Source of the DNA: Gammaproteobacteria bacterium
Lineage (GTDB): Bacteria > Pseudomonadota > Gammaproteobacteria > UBA4575
Assembly: GCA_965227695.1 (NCBI GenBank)
Contig: OZ245760.1
Location: 88,580 to 152,579 of the forward strand
Direction of reading: 5' to 3'
DNA: 64,000 nucleotides
The notes beneath the pieces are model-generated. The model was not told where the DNA came from and searched no databases. It saw nothing but the letters and a program-made list of their open reading frames with translations. Both the position numbers and the translations under genes were made by a program. Below, one piece after another: positions 28,502 to 35,006 of this stretch. Each line of letters begins with the position of its first letter. Within the stretch, counting starts at the first letter, position 1.

Positions 28502-30526
28502 GTGGATATTAGAAGAATTTTAGTTACCAGTGCATTACCCTATGCGAATGGCTCCATTCATCTGGGACATCTCGTAGAGTACATACAGACAGATATCTGG
28601 GTGCGTTTTCAGAAAATGTGCGGACATGAATGCATCTATGTCTGTGCCGACGATGCGCACGGAACACCAATTATGTTGCGCGCACAACAGCAAGGAGTGA
28701 CTCCCGAAGAACTGATTGCTGACACCAAAAAGGAACACGAGCAGGATTTCTCAGATTTCCATATTTCCTTTGATAATTTCCACAGTACTCACTCCGATGA
28801 GAACCATTATTTCTCAACCGAAATTTTCAGAACCCTGCAACAAAACGATTACATAAAAACAGATATCGTCACGGATCTCTTTGATCCACAGGAAAAAGTA
28901 TTTTTACCCGACCGCTTTGTGCGTGGTACATGTCCAAAATGCCACGCCGAAGATCAATACGGGGATAACTGCGAAGCCTGTGGTGCGACCTACAGCCCCG
29001 CTGACTTGATAAACCCCCGTTCGGCACTGAGCGGCAGCCAACCAGTGCAAAAAGAGAACTTGCACTACTTTTTCAGGCTCAGCGCGCTGGAACCAGCCCT
29101 GCGGGAATGGACCCAGTCGGGACGACTGCAACCTGAAATTGCCAATAAAATTTCTGAGTGGTTTACCGGCGGTCTGCAAGACTGGGATATCTCGCGGGAT
29201 GCACCTTATTTTGGCTTTGAAATCCCCGATGCGCCGGGCAAATATTTTTACGTCTGGCTGGATGCACCGATTGGCTACATGGCCAGTTTCAAGCACTACT
29301 GTGACCGTACAGGTGTTGATTTTGGCGATTACTGGAAGCCGGATAGCCAGGCCGAGCTATACCACTTTATCGGCAAAGACATTGCTTACTTCCATACCCT
29401 GTTCTGGCCCGCAATGCTGATGGGCTCGGGATGGCGTACACCCACCAGTGTTTTTTGCCATGGATTCCTGACTGTCAACGGGCAAAAAATGTCCAAATCG
29501 CGTGGCACGTTCATTAAGGCCAGGACTTACCTGAACCACCTGGCACCGGAATACCTGCGATATTACTTTGCTGCCAAATTAAATGATGGCATCTCTGACA
29601 TTGACCTGAACCTCGATGATTTCCAGCAACGTGTCAATAGTGACGTGGTAGGCAAAGTCGTCAATATTGCCAGCCGCTGCGCAGGATTTATCAACAAAAA
29701 ATATGCGTCTCAATTAACAGATCAATTTAATTCGGCAGAGACAAAAGAAGCGTTCGATGCGGCTGTTAGCTACAGTGATGCCATTAAAGAGTGTTATGAA
29801 AACAGAAAATACTCTGAGGCCATAAGGATCATAATGACTATTGCAGATTCTGCTAATCAGGTCATAGACAAAAACAAACCATGGGAACGCATAAAAAGCG
29901 AGCATAACCAAGAAGAAGTACAGCAAGTGTGCAGCTTTGGCATTAATGTCTTTCGACTTCTTATAGGATATTTAAAACCGGTAATGCCGCAACTTGCAGC
30001 ACAGTCTGAAGACTTTTTAAACAGTAAAGCGACCTGGAATGACCTGGCCTGCGGACAACCTCTCCCTGCCGGACATACGATTAAAAAATTTAAGCCTCTT
30101 ATAACCCGAATCGAGAAACAGGCGATCGAGAACATGGTTGAAGAAAGCAAACAGGTCACGACTCTTAAGGCACCCGATCCAATTTCCGAGCAAATCTCGT
30201 TTGATGATTTTACCAGACTGGATTTGCGTGTCGCACGTATTGTCAGTGCAAAACTGGTAGAAGGTGCTGATAAACTCGTTCAACTGACCCTGGACCTGGG
30301 TGAACCTGCCGGTGGCATACAAAAAAATGTTTTTGCCGGGATTAAAAGTGCTTACAGCCCCGAGGACCTCGAGGGCAAACTTGTTGTGATGGTCGCAAAC
30401 CTGGCACCACGTAAAATGCGGTTTGGTTTATCCGAAGGCATGGTTCTGGCCGCCAGCGGGGAAGACAGTGGGCTTTTCCTGATACACCCCGATCGCGGAG
30501 CGTCGCCCGGAATGCGTGTAAAGTAA
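28502..30526 (+). CDS. metG: Methionine--tRNA ligase
   Basis: HLGH motif, zinc knuckle [24 protein letters not shown]-terminal tRNA-binding domain; divergent from apbC as in E. coli. Confidence 0.95.
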
Positions 30527-30532
30527 ACATCG

Positions 30533-31162
30533 ATGCAGGTACCGGTTTCCTATAGCAAAACACTGGCAGTGATCGATGAAAATCACTGTATAGGGTGCAC
30601 ATTATGCATCAAGGCATGTCCCTTTGATGCCATCATTGGCGCATCAAAACATCTTCATACTGTTGTGCAATCTTACTGTACTGGTTGCAAATTATGTATT
30701 GAACCCTGTCCTGTGGACTGCATCACCATGCAGGAAAATCCTGCGGCAAATCAGCTGAAACCGGAAAAACCCGACTTCGCTTCTCACCAGGCCTGCATCC
30801 ATTGTAATGAATGTGTGACAGTGTGTCCTGCTCACATCAAGCCGGATTTTTTATACTCTCTCATTGCCAAACAGAAACTCCATAGCGCCCAGCACAATGC
30901 TGTCGAATCATGCACATTGTGTGGCAAATGCGACAATGCGTGTCCAAGCAAAATACCTTTGACATATTCTTTCTCGTACGCAATCGAAACGCTTAAACTG
31001 AAAAAAAACCGCAAAAATTTCACCATTGGCTGCAAACAGCGCAGACAATCGAGAGACAGAAGAATCAATCAACAGAAAAGAAAACAGCAGGCACAGTTGT
31101 CCAGCAATAAGCAAAATTTGGCCGCCAAGATAGAAGCACTCAAAAATGCGTCCTCTGGTTAA
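30533..31162 (+). CDS. Polyferredoxin related to the C-terminal half of RnfB/RsxB, with four CxxCxxCxxxCP motifs and a basic tail
   Basis: [26 protein letters not shown]...[12 protein letters not shown] closely matches RsxB ferredoxin domain; two further 4Fe-4S motifs; lies where rnf operon precedes nth in other gammaproteobacteria. Confidence 0.6.
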
Positions 31163-31188
31163 TTTTTCAATCATAGTAGCCAAACAAT

Positions 31189-31824
31189 GTGAATAAAGAA
31201 AAACGCATTAAAATTTTTCGCCGCTTATACCAGCAGAACCCTCATCCTACCACTGAGCTTCATTACAACAATGTTTTTGAACTACTGATCTCGGTAATGC
31301 TCTCTGCGCAGGCCACCGACATCAGTGTCAATAAAGCCACCGGCCCTTTATTCGGTGTCGCGAACAGTCCTGAAAAAATACTCCAGCTTGGTGAGAAAAA
31401 ATTAAGGAACCATATCAAAACCATCGGACTGTACAATACAAAAGCCAAAAACATTATCCAGACTTGCAAGATTTTAGTTGAAAAGCACCATAGCCATGTT
31501 CCACAGGATCGCTCAGCACTCGAAGCATTGCCAGGTGTCGGACGCAAAACTGCAAATGTGGTTTTAAATACCGGCTTCGGTCTTCCAACCATTGCAGTCG
31601 ATACTCATATTTTTCGTGTCAGTAACCGGACCGGTATTGCACCTGGTAAAAATGTGACTGAAGTTGAAAAACGCTTAATGCGGCTGGTGCCCGATGAATT
31701 CAAGCAGGATGCTCACCACTGGTTGATACTACTCGGACGCTATACTTGTCTTGCACGCAAACCAAAATGCCCTGACTGCGTAATAAATGACCTTTGCGAA
31801 TACAAAAAGAAAACAATAGTTTAA
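31189..31824 (+). CDS. nth: Endonuclease III
   Basis: HhH-GPD (LPGVGRKTANVVL) and C-terminal 4Fe-4S Cys ligands (C-x6-C-x2-C-x5-C). Confidence 0.9.
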   Translation: MNKEKRIKIFRRLYQQNPHPTTELHYNNVFELLISVMLSAQATDISVNKATGPLFGVANSPEKILQLGEKKLRNHIKTIGLYNTKAKNIIQTCKILVEKHHSHVPQDRSALEALPGVGRKTANVVLNTGFGLPTIAVDTHIFRVSNRTGIAPGKNVTEVEKRLMRLVPDEFKQDAHHWLILLGRYTCLARKPKCPDCVINDLCEYKKKTIV

Positions 31825-32060
31825 TCGGATCGTTTGAACACTGCCTATGTCCGTATCATTGCCATGGAACTCAAACACACCTTGAAACTCTAATTTACAT
31901 GGTCGGGCTATAACCCTGATTATATATAAGGCTATTTATCCCTTCTTTGTCATTGTAATATAATGCGACTGCGAAGGGTCTTTTACTCACTGGAAGCCTG
32001 CTTCCAGACGATACACTCAATAAAATCTCGAACCAACTTAAACTCGTATGGAGATACTCA

Positions 32061-32396
32061 ATGTCAAAAAAAAATGAACTCAAGCCTATCGCTGCCGCTG
32101 TCGGCGCTGCATTAACAGCCAGCGTCATTGCACTACCGACTGCAAACGCAGATGCCAACCCATTTGCCATGACAGAGCTGTCTTCAGGCTACATGGTTGC
32201 GGATAGCCATGAAGGCAAGTGTGGCGAAGGGAAATGCGGCGAAGGCAAGTGTGGCGAAGGGAAATGCGGCGAAGGCAAGTGCGGTGAAGGGAAATGCGGC
32301 GAAGGCAAGTGCGGTGAAGGCAAGTGCGGTGAAGGGAAATGCGGTGAAGAAAAGTCCGGTGAAGGGAAATGCGGCGAAGGTAAGTGCGGCTCTTAA
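32061..32396 (+). CDS. Secreted Cys-repeat RiPP-like precursor: Sec signal peptide plus 12 tandem G-K-C-G-E pentapeptides
   Basis: Signal peptide ending ALPTANA, then HEGKCGE(GKCGE)n...GKCGS; followed by DoxX, DUF692/MNIO and DUF2063 genes. Confidence 0.7.
   Translation: MSKKNELKPIAAAVGAALTASVIALPTANADANPFAMTELSSGYMVADSHEGKCGEGKCGEGKCGEGKCGEGKCGEGKCGEGKCGEGKCGEGKCGEEKSGEGKCGEGKCGS
32211..32390 (+). repeat. Tandem 15-nt (30-nt super-unit) in-frame repeat encoding the GKCGE units
   Basis: gaaggcaagtgtggc / gaagggaaatgcggc alternate with synonymous differences. Confidence 0.9.
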
Positions 32397-32416
32397 GCAG
32401 GACCAGATAACCCGAA

Positions 32417-32446
32417 GTCAAGGTGTTAAAAAAACACCTTGACTTT
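32417..32446 (+). terminator. Stem-loop (about 11-bp stem) followed by TTT after the precursor stop; candidate intrinsic terminator/attenuator
   Basis: gtcaaggtgtt-aaaaa-aacaccttgac then ttt. Confidence 0.45.
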
Positions 32447-32740
32447 AATCAATCACTAAAATGCAATCACACTGTAATATAGCACATAGCCGACTGTATC
32501 CTGATCTTGCCAGTGAGTCATCGACTTGCTTTTAAGGCTTTTAATTCCGGAACGCACAACAGAACATTATCAACCGTTATATCAGTCATTTTCCCCACCC
32601 AAAATTGATGAATTGGCCAATCCGTGATGTAAGAAAATACCAACCATCTCAGGTCTCATAAGTGGCAAGACTATATGCCATAACTTTTACCACAGCACAG
32701 ATGCAGCCACTTGAAGCACTGCTACCATTTGGGAGTCACT

Positions 32741-33355
32741 ATGATCAGCCTCATTGATAATATTAATCACATTTTCGACAAACTTCGTGCACTGGACTTT
32801 TTAGCTCCCTTGTTGCTGCGTTTATTTCTTGCCCCAATAATGATTTATGCCGGACTTTCTAAACTTGGCGATGTAAGCAATACCGCCCTGTGGTTTGAGC
32901 ACTCGCTTAACCTGCCTCTTCCAACCTTGATGGTTTATCTTTCAGGAGGCGCCGAGTTCTTCGGCGGTATCGCACTGCTTATAGGTTTTGCAGTGCGCTG
33001 GGTAGCCATCCCGCTGATGATTACGATGGTTGTTGCTGCAACCACGGCCCACTGGGAGAATGGCTGGCATCAGTTCCACGAAGCCAATCAAACGGTTCCC
33101 TGGGAGTGGCGTACCGACCTGATTGAAGAGGGAAACAAACGCAAATCCATCATAAAGAATGTACTGCGAGAGCACGCTAATTATCAATATTTGAGTGAAA
33201 CCGGCAGCATTACCATTCTTAAAAATGGCATTGAAGTGGCCACGGCTTATTTCATTATGTTACTGGCGCTATTCTTTACGGGAGCAGGTAGGTTTTTAAG
33301 CGTCGACTATTACTTATCTCTAATGTACCCTAGAAATTCGATTTCAAATAGTTGA
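32741..33355 (+). CDS. DoxX-family membrane protein with C-terminal extension
   Basis: DoxX-type 4-TM core (LLLRLFLAPIMIYAGLSKL...); GGGAG RBS before ATG at 32741 (ORF opens at 32711). Confidence 0.6.
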   Translation: MISLIDNINHIFDKLRALDFLAPLLLRLFLAPIMIYAGLSKLGDVSNTALWFEHSLNLPLPTLMVYLSGGAEFFGGIALLIGFAVRWVAIPLMITMVVAATTAHWENGWHQFHEANQTVPWEWRTDLIEEGNKRKSIIKNVLREHANYQYLSETGSITILKNGIEVATAYFIMLLALFFTGAGRFLSVDYYLSLMYPRNSISNS

Positions 33356-33370
33356 ATCTGGCCAATAATC

Positions 33371-34243
33371 ATGGAACATCATGTGCACGCTTCACAGTAC
33401 CGGGTAAACGGGGCAGGTCTTGGGCTCAGACGTGGGCATATGCTGGACACGCTGCTGGAAGCAAACCCCTCACAAATACAGTTTATGGAAGTCGCGCCCG
33501 AAAACTGGATTGGTGTTGGCGGACGCCTTGGAAAACGTTTTCAAGAGTACACAGAACGTTACCCTTTTGTCACGCATGGTTTATCATTATCGATCGGTGG
33601 ACCCACACCAATTGATACCAACCTGGTGAAAGATATCAGGGCATTTCTGGAACAACACAAAATAATACAGTACACAGAGCACCTTACTTACTGCTCAGAC
33701 ACGGGCCATCTATATGACTTGATGCCAATCCCTTTTACGTCTGAAGCGGTTCACTACGTTGCTGACCGCATTAACCAGGTGCAGGATATTCTTGGTCAGC
33801 GCATCGCGATGGAAAATGCCTCATATTACGCAGCACCAGGTCAGGAAATGGAAGAAATCGACTTTATCAAAGCCGTGCTGGAAGAGTCCGATTGTCAACT
33901 GCTACTCGACATTAACAACATCTATGTTAATTCTGTCAACCACAACTATGACCCAGTGGCGTTCCTGTCAGCGCTGCCCAAAGAACGTATTACTTATGCA
34001 CATATTGCAGGACACTATAACGAAGCTGAGGATTTAATTGTCGATACCCACGGCGCAGATGTCATTGATCCGGTATGGAACCTGCTAGATAAAGCTTACG
34101 AAGTGTTTGGTGTCTTCCCCACGCTCCTGGAACGGGATTTCAACATCCCGGAAGTCCCTGTTCTATTGAAAGAGGTAAACCAGATATGCACTTTACAAAG
34201 CAAGTGGGCGCAACCCGACAACATGATACAAGTACATGCCTGA
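33371..34243 (+). CDS. DUF692 (UPF0276) family protein, MNIO-type RiPP maturase candidate
   Basis: TIM-barrel DUF692 hallmarks (GAGLGLRRGH, ENWIGVGG, conserved His/Asp/Glu metal ligands); 290 aa. Confidence 0.75.
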   Translation: MEHHVHASQYRVNGAGLGLRRGHMLDTLLEANPSQIQFMEVAPENWIGVGGRLGKRFQEYTERYPFVTHGLSLSIGGPTPIDTNLVKDIRAFLEQHKIIQYTEHLTYCSDTGHLYDLMPIPFTSEAVHYVADRINQVQDILGQRIAMENASYYAAPGQEMEEIDFIKAVLEESDCQLLLDINNIYVNSVNHNYDPVAFLSALPKERITYAHIAGHYNEAEDLIVDTHGADVIDPVWNLLDKAYEVFGVFPTLLERDFNIPEVPVLLKEVNQICTLQSKWAQPDNMIQVHA

Positions 34244-35006
34244 TACCGACCCGGGTTTTAAAAATATACAATATCGCTTTACCGCTCATTTAAGAGACCC
34301 GGAGAACAACCCGGCTCCTGGTGAGATTGAAGACCGCCGAATGGAAATATATCGGGGCCTAATCTACCGGAATATACAGAATTTTTTGTCAAATGCATTC
34401 CCCGTCACCAGAATGCTTTATAGTGATGATCACTGGCATAAGCTGGTAAGGCATTTTTTCTCTGCTCACCAATGCCATTCACCTTACTTTAAAGACATTT
34501 CAAAAGAATTCATTGATTATTTAACTAATGAACATCAAGCACAACCTGAAGATCCACCATTTCTATACGAGCTGGCCCACTACGAATGGATCGAAATTGT
34601 CCTGACACTGATGGATGGCGAGATTGATTGGAGTCGAATTAACAAAAAGGGCAATCTGCTGAAGGATATCCCGATACTGACCCCTTTTATGCAGCTGCAA
34701 AGTTACGAGTATCCCGTGCATAAAATTACACCGGATTTTCAGCCAGAAACACCAGGCCAAAGTCCTACTTTCATACTCATATATCGAGACTTAAAAGATA
34801 AAGTTGGATTTCTGGAGCTAAACCCTATCACTGCACGATTGGTTGAACTGATCAGTGAAAATCAATCACGGACAAGTGAGGACATATTAACCAGCATCGC
34901 CGAGCAGATACCCGGATTAACAAAAGAGTCTGTTCTCCATGGTGGACATATCGCCCTGAATGAATTATTCGGGAAAGATATCTTTTTAGGGACAAGAAAG
35001 GCTTAA
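34236..35006 (+). CDS. DUF2063-family protein (MbnC/BufC-like RiPP recognition partner)
   Basis: 256 aa, overlaps DUF692 gene by 8 nt; conserved pairing of DUF692 with DUF2063. Confidence 0.65.
   Translation: MPDTDPGFKNIQYRFTAHLRDPENNPAPGEIEDRRMEIYRGLIYRNIQNFLSNAFPVTRMLYSDDHWHKLVRHFFSAHQCHSPYFKDISKEFIDYLTNEHQAQPEDPPFLYELAHYEWIEIVLTLMDGEIDWSRINKKGNLLKDIPILTPFMQLQSYEYPVHKITPDFQPETPGQSPTFILIYRDLKDKVGFLELNPITARLVELISENQSRTSEDILTSIAEQIPGLTKESVLHGGHIALNELFGKDIFLGTRKA

Follow-up and report, generated by a model that had tools for sequence, protein, structure and literature searches.

Alternating synonymous codons in the EGKCG repeat of an HvfA-family precursor gene: a probable footprint of two-unit block duplication

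The window analysed here, a 64-kb stretch of gammaproteobacterial DNA whose numbering is used throughout, carries a cluster of exactly four genes: one for a small RiPP precursor and, adjoining it, genes for an HvfX protein, an HvfB-type MNIO and an HvfC partner, each of the latter three scoring above its curated NCBIfam cut-off (Table 1). The precursor ORF matches the HvfA family metallophore domain model (NCBIfam NF050137) in two stretches, with 58.9 bits against a cut-off of 19.5, and falls below the cut-off of the HvfA equivalog model (NF050188, 49.7 versus 95 bits); judged by these profile scores, it is a member of the HvfA family and not an equivalog of Haemophilus influenzae HvfA. The MNIO fails the BufB and MbnB models on the NCBIfam cut-offs (261 versus 310 bits and 45 versus 325 bits, respectively). 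A protein search with the precursor returned 394 homologues at E<=1e-5, which several source databases label "uncharacterized low-complexity protein". Five of these homologues (P0063, P0081, P0090, P0104 and P0112) carry EF-hand domains (PF13405, PF13499, PF13202), in agreement with the second Buf_EGKCG type of PMC12452194. An otherwise anonymous low-complexity ORF can thus be assigned to a recently characterised copper-binding RiPP class, together with a complete four-gene maturation cluster.

Its neighbours are nth on the upstream side and, downstream, a gene for isocitrate/isopropylmalate dehydrogenase in convergent orientation. The cluster sits among same-strand housekeeping genes (28502..31824), which include metG (674 aa), an RnfB/4Fe-4S-type poly-ferredoxin gene (30533..31162) and an endonuclease III gene (31189..31824). 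The start of hvfX is ambiguous: the TTG that opens the ORF at 32711 is followed ten codons on by an in-frame ATG (MISLIDN..., within 32711..32743), and the HvfX model aligns from residue 30 onward only. Rfam and tRNA scans of the whole 64-kb window found no rRNA, tRNA or Rfam family.

Table 1. Features of the precursor gene, its repeat and the maturation cluster (window positions)
Feature	Position	Strand	Basis or remark
GGAAC-N18-TCTAA, sigma-E/ECF-like candidate promoter	31866..31893	+	~170-195 nt 5' of the start codon; conservation
TGTAATATAAT, -10-like element (putative)	31954..31964	+	TGTAATA.A invariant in 7 relatives
Shine-Dalgarno GGAGA	32050..32054	+	6 nt before ATG; GGAGA invariant in the alignment of relatives
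hvfA-like RiPP precursor gene	32061..32396	+	111 aa + stop; NCBIfam NF050137 match
Sec-type signal peptide (putative), residues 1-30 (MSKKNELK / PIAAAVGAALTASVIALP / TANA)	32061..32150	+	sequence inspection
Conserved N-region DANPFAMTELSSGYMVADSH (NPF..L.SGY)	32151..32210	+	conservation in 50 homologues
12 x 15-nt in-frame array: 11 EGKCG (11 Cys) + one Cys-less unit	32211..32390	+	Tandem Repeats Finder, translation
Degenerate unit 10, GAA GAA AAG TCC GGT = EEKSG	32346..32360	+	same in L081
14-bp hairpin, weak U-tract	32414..32446	+	18 nt past the precursor stop; dG -20.6 kcal/mol
hvfX, DoxX-family membrane protein	32711..33355	+	NF050144 185.2 bits vs cut-off 80; Pfam DoxX
hvfB, MNIO (DUF692) maturase	33371..34243	+	NF003818 439.6 bits vs cut-off 360; PF05114 341 bits
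hvfC, DUF2063/RRE partner protein	34236..35006	+	NF050145 293.6 bits vs cut-off 142; PF09836 + PF22106

By inspection, the precursor begins with a putative signal peptide that has three Lys residues in its n-region, an 18-residue hydrophobic stretch and a predicted cleavage site after A-N-A, before Asp31; K3, K4, K8, P9, A28 and A30 are nearly invariant among 50 homologues, and for HvfA itself the signal peptide has been demonstrated experimentally (PMC11252979). The N-region that follows is strongly conserved in the same 50 sequences, with F35, S41, S42, G43 and Y44 invariant and N33, P34 and L40 at least 90% conserved, and is probably the recognition region for the HvfBC complex. AlphaFold2, run on the 50-sequence alignment, returned a model of the precursor with a pLDDT of 45.7, no secondary structure and no confident fold. 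This outcome is uninformative, yet would fit a flexible substrate peptide; it lends no structural support to a two-unit module in the window precursor.

Upstream of the precursor gene, the GGAAC and TCTAA columns of the ECF-like element are invariant in an alignment with seven close relatives, and the strict pattern recurs at equal distance in four loci (L001-L003 and L037). We regard the element as a candidate stress-responsive promoter of the cluster. A family-wide promoter motif of this kind was ruled out: the strict form GGAAC-N17-20-TC[T/A/C]AA is confined to the close clade and occurs at 4 of the 108 family loci, where it lies 155-182 nt ahead of the start codon; its background rate is 0.001 per 300 nt. 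The precursor 5' UTR also contains a perfect 8+2+8 palindrome, CTGGAAGC-CT-GCTTCCAG (31990..32007); its interpretation as an operator or hairpin was dropped, as the left arm (CAGGAAG) alone is conserved in relatives. Downstream of the precursor stop codon, the hairpin listed in Table 1 is more stable than expected from its composition (z = -6.6), and none of 200 shuffled sequences folds equally well. Relatives have hairpins of other sequence in the same place (L001 1665..1686, L002 1664..1680, L003 1667..1684, L162 840..854, and also L163), so that the position, ~18-22 nt after the stop codon, is conserved and the sequence is not; a clear U-tract is seen in none of them. A generic terminator scan did not call the hairpin after hvfA, because it is not GC-rich and lacks a T-run. 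Located between the precursor and the maturation genes, it is probably a partial terminator or an mRNA-stabilising stem, and its presence suggests that the precursor transcript would be favoured over those of the enzyme genes through attenuation or stabilisation.

The core of the precursor is a single tandem array. Tandem Repeats Finder reports one array of period 15 with 12.0 copies, 81% matches, no indels and a score of 213, and this is the only substantial tandem repeat in the window. It lies in frame 0 of the precursor ORF and reads EGKCG nine times, EEKSG once and EGKCG twice more, followed by Ser and the stop codon. The sequence-only reading that preceded this analysis had described an in-frame 15-nt repeat written in two synonymous versions with a single degenerate unit devoid of Cys, and both points hold. 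Version A is GAAGGCAAGTG[T/C]GG[C/T], that is, GAA GGC AAG TG[T/C] GG[C/T]; version B is GAAGGGAAATGCGG[C/T], that is, GAA GGG AAA TGC GG[C/T]. Along the array the units follow the order A B A B A B A A B x B A', where x is the Cys-less unit 10. Alternation is strict only in units 1-7, and units 7 and 8 are identical. Self-identity of the array is 0.81 at a lag of 15 nt and 0.90 at a lag of 30 nt, and the description of the DNA as effectively a 30-nt repeat is therefore fair for the 5' two-thirds. Unit 10 corresponds to the EEKAE/EGKAE spacer units of relatives, which have EEKAE, EGKAE or EGKDA at comparable places.

Several properties of the array bear on how it arose. The number of runs in the A/B order is the highest that can occur, for which P = 0.0076 if unit 10 is classed by its Lys codon and P = 0.09 if it is left out. 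The codons for Gly-2 and Lys-3 are perfectly linked: six units have GGC/GGT with AAG, five have GGG with AAA, and there are no recombinants (P = 0.002). The four sites that vary among the 11 canonical units are all in the third position of their codon (P = 0.004). Units 1-2 are identical to units 3-4, and the array still contains exact direct repeats, 41 nt long at an offset of 30, 29 nt long at an offset of 45 and 20 nt long at an offset of 15. Sub-variants of A cluster by position, with A1 in units 1 and 3 and A2 in units 5, 7 and 8; in A2 (GAAGGCAAGTGCGGT), the first 11 nt are those of A and the last 4 nt those of B'. All six frames of the consensus unit are free of stop codons, and the ORFs that overlap the array in other frames are thus by-products of the repeat. 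Two such ORFs had been called antisense artefacts: the artefact part of that statement stands for both, and 32125..32421 is indeed antisense, but 32197..32442 lies on the + strand in the +1 frame; the antisense ORFs over the array are 32125..32421 and 32189..32323.

The number of units differs between closely related strains. One homologue (P0001, encoded on contig L081) has a leader and tail identical to those of the window protein but is 96 aa long. At the DNA level, L081 shows 2 mismatches in 418 nt upstream, a leader that is 100% identical and ~3% divergence downstream, the flanks being about 99% identical overall; within the array it differs by a 45-nt indel (9 versus 12 units) and 3 substitutions. 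Its units, in the order A1 B' A1 B A1 B' x B A', alternate strictly, and the extra units in the window are of subtype A2. A2 would be the expected product of an out-of-register exchange between A and B', although it could also have arisen by two point substitutions. Protein clusters at 90% identity show the same behaviour, with proteins that share a leader having lengths of 72/92/102/107, 72/82/97 and 92/95/100/105/115 aa, mostly whole-unit (5-aa) steps. As far as these sequences allow the locus to be judged, it is a real variable intragenic tandem repeat, in which copy number changes while flanks and frame are kept, as had been anticipated from the window alone.

A third contig (L166 1..773, ENA ERZ27256790 k141_899617) is essentially identical to the window over its first ~210 nt, which cover the 5' UTR, the leader and units 1-3, and then continues into a divergent core, EGKKAK EGKCG EGKCG GKN. 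A strong terminator follows, and a minus-strand gene with a Nitro_FeMo-Co domain occupies the place where hvfX would be. L166 represents either another precursor copy that stands alone or a chimeric contig whose junction lies within the repeat.

The latter possibility raises the question of whether the count of 12 units, or of 9 in L081, might itself be an error of assembly, in which the repeat was collapsed or expanded. Both counts come from assemblies, L081 being a short-read metagenome contig; L081 and L166 are short k141 contigs, and L166 could be an example of such an error. However, collapse is unlikely because the longest exact internal repeat is only 41 nt, far below the k of 141 given in the contig name and below usual read lengths. 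Moreover, the order of unit variants is unique to each array, and protein lengths that differ in steps of 5 aa are seen again in many clusters and samples that are independent of one another. We therefore attach very little probability to an assembly artefact.

Comparison with more distant relatives places the window array at one extreme of its family. No public assembly has an exact copy of the window's HvfB on record, and an HvfB scan of GTDB species genomes yielded 80 loci, the best being 78% identical and from an uncultured Thiotrichales MAG. The three closest loci have the window's leader with cores that are shorter and interrupted, and most relatives have the doublet-plus-spacer form, EGKCGEGKCGG followed by a Lys-rich spacer. 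For the longest stretch of EGKCG without interruption, the mode across 276 sampled family proteins is 2; the nine units of the window are the maximum, and the next longest are two runs of 8. The window gene is thus a new family member with an unusually long spacer-less array. A metagenome scan with the precursor gave, among the matches listed, mostly distant family members instead of strain variants, and served as a replication set for the tests described below.

The synonymous pattern itself is unevenly distributed in this family. Alternation is present in L081, and is absent from the sister clade (L162-L165), in which abutting units are identical and the second run has 3, 4 or 5 units. Long uninterrupted runs in two independent family members likewise lack it: the run of 8 in L098 is made of three identical and then five identical 15-nt units, so that perfect 15-nt repetition extends over as much as 75 nt, and the run of 6 in L153 has a three-unit, 45-nt higher-order period. 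Family members therefore differ in their modes of expansion.

The repeat is the core of an HvfA-family precursor, and taken together, these observations make it probable that the alternation is the footprint of two-unit block duplication in an unstable array under selection on the peptide. The perfect linkage of Gly and Lys codons indicates copying from two templates, and the exact repeats of 41, 29 and 20 nt show that the array is still a good substrate for slippage. In our reconstruction of the order of events, an abutting pair of units would first have diverged at synonymous sites; such a pair would correspond to the two-Cys cassette, which in relatives serves as the functional unit and as the minimal substrate. 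Slipped-strand mispairing or unequal recombination would then have multiplied this pair in blocks of 30 nt. Subsequent events of 15 and 45 nt, including the formation of A/B' chimeric units, would account for the irregularity of the 3' half and for the difference of 12 versus 9 units between strains. Throughout, purifying selection on EGKCG would have restricted surviving differences to third codon positions. Selection on the peptide had also been part of the initial proposal, and it is upheld by the exclusively synonymous differences among the 11 canonical units and by the conservation of EGKCG in hundreds of relatives.

The initial proposal went further and viewed the alternation as a device against slippage. 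On that account, codon diversification is selected and maintained, as it would lower the loss of units through slipped-strand mispairing or recombination at constant peptide sequence. The maximal number of runs in the A/B order is in keeping with it. Nevertheless, the exact repeats of 41, 29 and 20 nt persist in the window array, a near-identical strain has an array that differs from it by 45 nt, and a periodicity of 30 nt itself makes an array ideally suited to slippage by 30 nt. The nearest sister clade and the independent long runs show no A/B alternation, and perfect codon linkage and spatially clustered sub-variants point instead to copying of a two-unit template. As an explanation of the window's pattern, a protective role of the alternation is poorly supported.

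Selected diversification does receive some backing from the family at large. We compared abutting EGKCG units with same-gene pairs taken from different runs in the same relative register, with the window and L081 left out; under a null of register-preserving duplication and neutral change, both kinds of pair have the same expected difference. A shuffle of all units within each gene was discarded as a null because block duplication biases it, and register-matched pairs and a register-preserving permutation were used in its place. In 121 genes, abutting units differ by 2.00 nt and cross-run pairs by 1.79 nt (Wilcoxon P = 5.6e-4). The excess is seen in genomes (P = 0.002), in the separately fetched metagenome matches listed (P = 0.03) and in doublets only (P = 0.007). 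Register-preserving permutation over 107 genes, dereplicated by leader DNA, gave 630 observed differences against 573 +/- 12 (z = 4.7), and all four variable codons contribute to the excess. At about 10% the effect is small, and the genes tested are not phylogenetically independent. Furthermore, identical abutting pairs are not depleted in the family set (10.6% versus 11.8%), abutting units show no excess of differences relative to global codon frequencies, and several loci (L098, L107, L133 and L162-L165) are counter-examples to recurrent synonymous diversification. Pure neutral block duplication does not predict the family-wide excess, which to this modest extent qualifies our interpretation. 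The data give a weak indication that diversified abutting units persist longer across the family, which does not explain the pattern in the window. On balance, we consider it unlikely that the alternation was selected for its effect on stability.

A cause at the level of translation or mRNA would be another way to account for the codon usage. Mixing GGC with GGG and AAG with AAA might spread the demand on tRNA-Gly isoacceptors, or avoid strong mRNA structure or ribosome slippage. Gly does account for 23 of the 60 array codons, GGG is used in 5 of 11 cases at position 2 compared with 16% of Gly codons in the long ORFs of the window, and the family-wide excess is not specific to a DNA-level mechanism. 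In gammaproteobacteria, however, AAA and AAG are decoded by one tRNA-Lys, and the Lys codons of the array nonetheless alternate in perfect linkage with those for Gly, which is better accommodated by template copying. Long homogeneous runs also occur in relatives (L098). A translational origin accordingly appears highly improbable to us.

Two further readings may be taken jointly: selection or differential survival could keep the abutting units of a copper site synonymously different throughout the EGKCG metallophore family, and gain and loss of whole units in arrays that lack spacers, such as the one in the window, could tune periplasmic copper capacity. We hold these readings to be unlikely. 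Were the first to apply, synonymous difference between abutting units would genetically stabilise the di-Cys cassette; were the second to apply, the tuning would act at the population level, and the difference between the 9- and 12-unit alleles would be functional and not neutral noise. The 12-unit and 9-unit alleles in near-identical strains form a natural pair for testing copper capacity or tolerance against unit number. More generally, where synonymous codons alternate in a coding repeat, duplication history should be the first reading, and adaptive codon design should be invoked only if independent lineages repeat the pattern.

The relevance of unit number follows from what is known of characterised relatives. 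In H. influenzae HvfA, six Cys residues in three AEGKCGEGKCG motifs each lose 4 Da in the presence of HvfB and HvfC, and the modified protein binds Cu(I) at ~1 ion per pair of modifications (PMC11252979). The product, initially described as oxazolone/thioamide, has been reassigned to 5-thiooxazole (PMC12668002; bioRxiv 10.64898/2026.06.05.730506; 10.64898/2026.07.17.739211). With FonBC in vitro, a truncated FonA containing two EGKCG repeats is modified and one with a single repeat is not (PMC12668002). Thiooxazole conversion and Cu(I) binding are known for HvfA, FonA, NgoA and MmrA only. By analogy with these proteins, the window precursor would be made with a Sec signal peptide, HvfB, as a multinuclear non-haem iron oxidase, would act with HvfC to turn each EGKCG Cys into a 5-thiooxazole, and the exported product would bind Cu(I) at roughly one ion per pair of heterocycles. 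Unit number would then set copper capacity, with 11 Cys residues corresponding to about 5 sites. The chemistry and copper binding given here for the window organism are inferred from these relatives. The 30-nt block of the array coincides with the two-Cys cassette, the functional unit in these relatives.

The EGKCG peptide repeat, its function and its variability between species have already been described, and only two elements are new here, namely the 9/12 polymorphism between strains and the small synonymous excess between abutting units across the family. In the literature on these systems we found no discussion of the DNA-level repeat pattern or of strain-level polymorphism, and the Microbulbifer paper (PMC12538549) is silent on slippage, synonymous codons and copy number.

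Among known systems, HvfA/oxazolin of nontypeable Haemophilus influenzae has in common with the window a Sec signal peptide, EGKCG Cys sites and, in hvfX-hvfA-hvfB-hvfC, the same four-gene set (DoxX, precursor, MNIO and DUF2063 partner). HvfA, however, has three spacer-separated AEGKCGEGKCG cassettes and an N-terminal disulfide pair, whereas the window protein has 12 abutting five-residue units with 11 Cys and no N-terminal Cys; the window cluster begins with the precursor gene and that of H. influenzae with hvfX. A wider group is formed by Buf_EGKCG type 1 (PMC12452194), FonA and the captophorins (PMC12668002) and MmrA of Microbulbifer (PMC12538549). A survey counts ~2,000 Buf_EGKCG/oxazolin precursors (PMC12452194). 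As in the window, EGKCG is repeated in these proteins and the core BGC of the Buf_EGKCG, fontiphorin, captophorin and MmrA systems comprises precursor, MNIO, DUF2063 protein and DoxX. Repeats vary between species (in Microbulbifer, precursors have five to eight Cys; PMC12538549), and the two-Cys cassette is the working unit. Buf_EGKCG type 1 proper is defined by repeats of 17 residues that comprise two EGKCG motifs plus a spacer, and by a beta-helix AF2 model (PMC12452194); the window array differs in both respects, with units that abut without spacers and the low-confidence AF2 model noted above.

Bufferins (BufA; DUF2282 / Buf_6/12Cys) and methanobactin (MbnA) likewise depend on an MNIO and a partner protein that oxidise Cys to a copper-binding heterocycle, and bufferins resemble the window cluster in their signal peptides and DoxX neighbours. 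The BufA and MbnA precursors belong to different families and have no EGKCG tandem array. At the DNA level, the closest parallel is E. coli tolA, which, like the window gene, contains an in-frame, imperfect array of ~15-nt units with strain-variable copy number and a retained peptide repeat. The 13 imperfect 15/18-bp repeats of tolA still contract at 6.9e-5 (PMC3477136), a measured rate that belongs to tolA and not to the window locus; we count this contraction, too, on the side of duplication history. The two arrays differ in what they encode, as the repeat of tolA is a structural Lys/Ala-rich spacer, whereas the unit in the window is a putative maturase substrate site and metal ligand.
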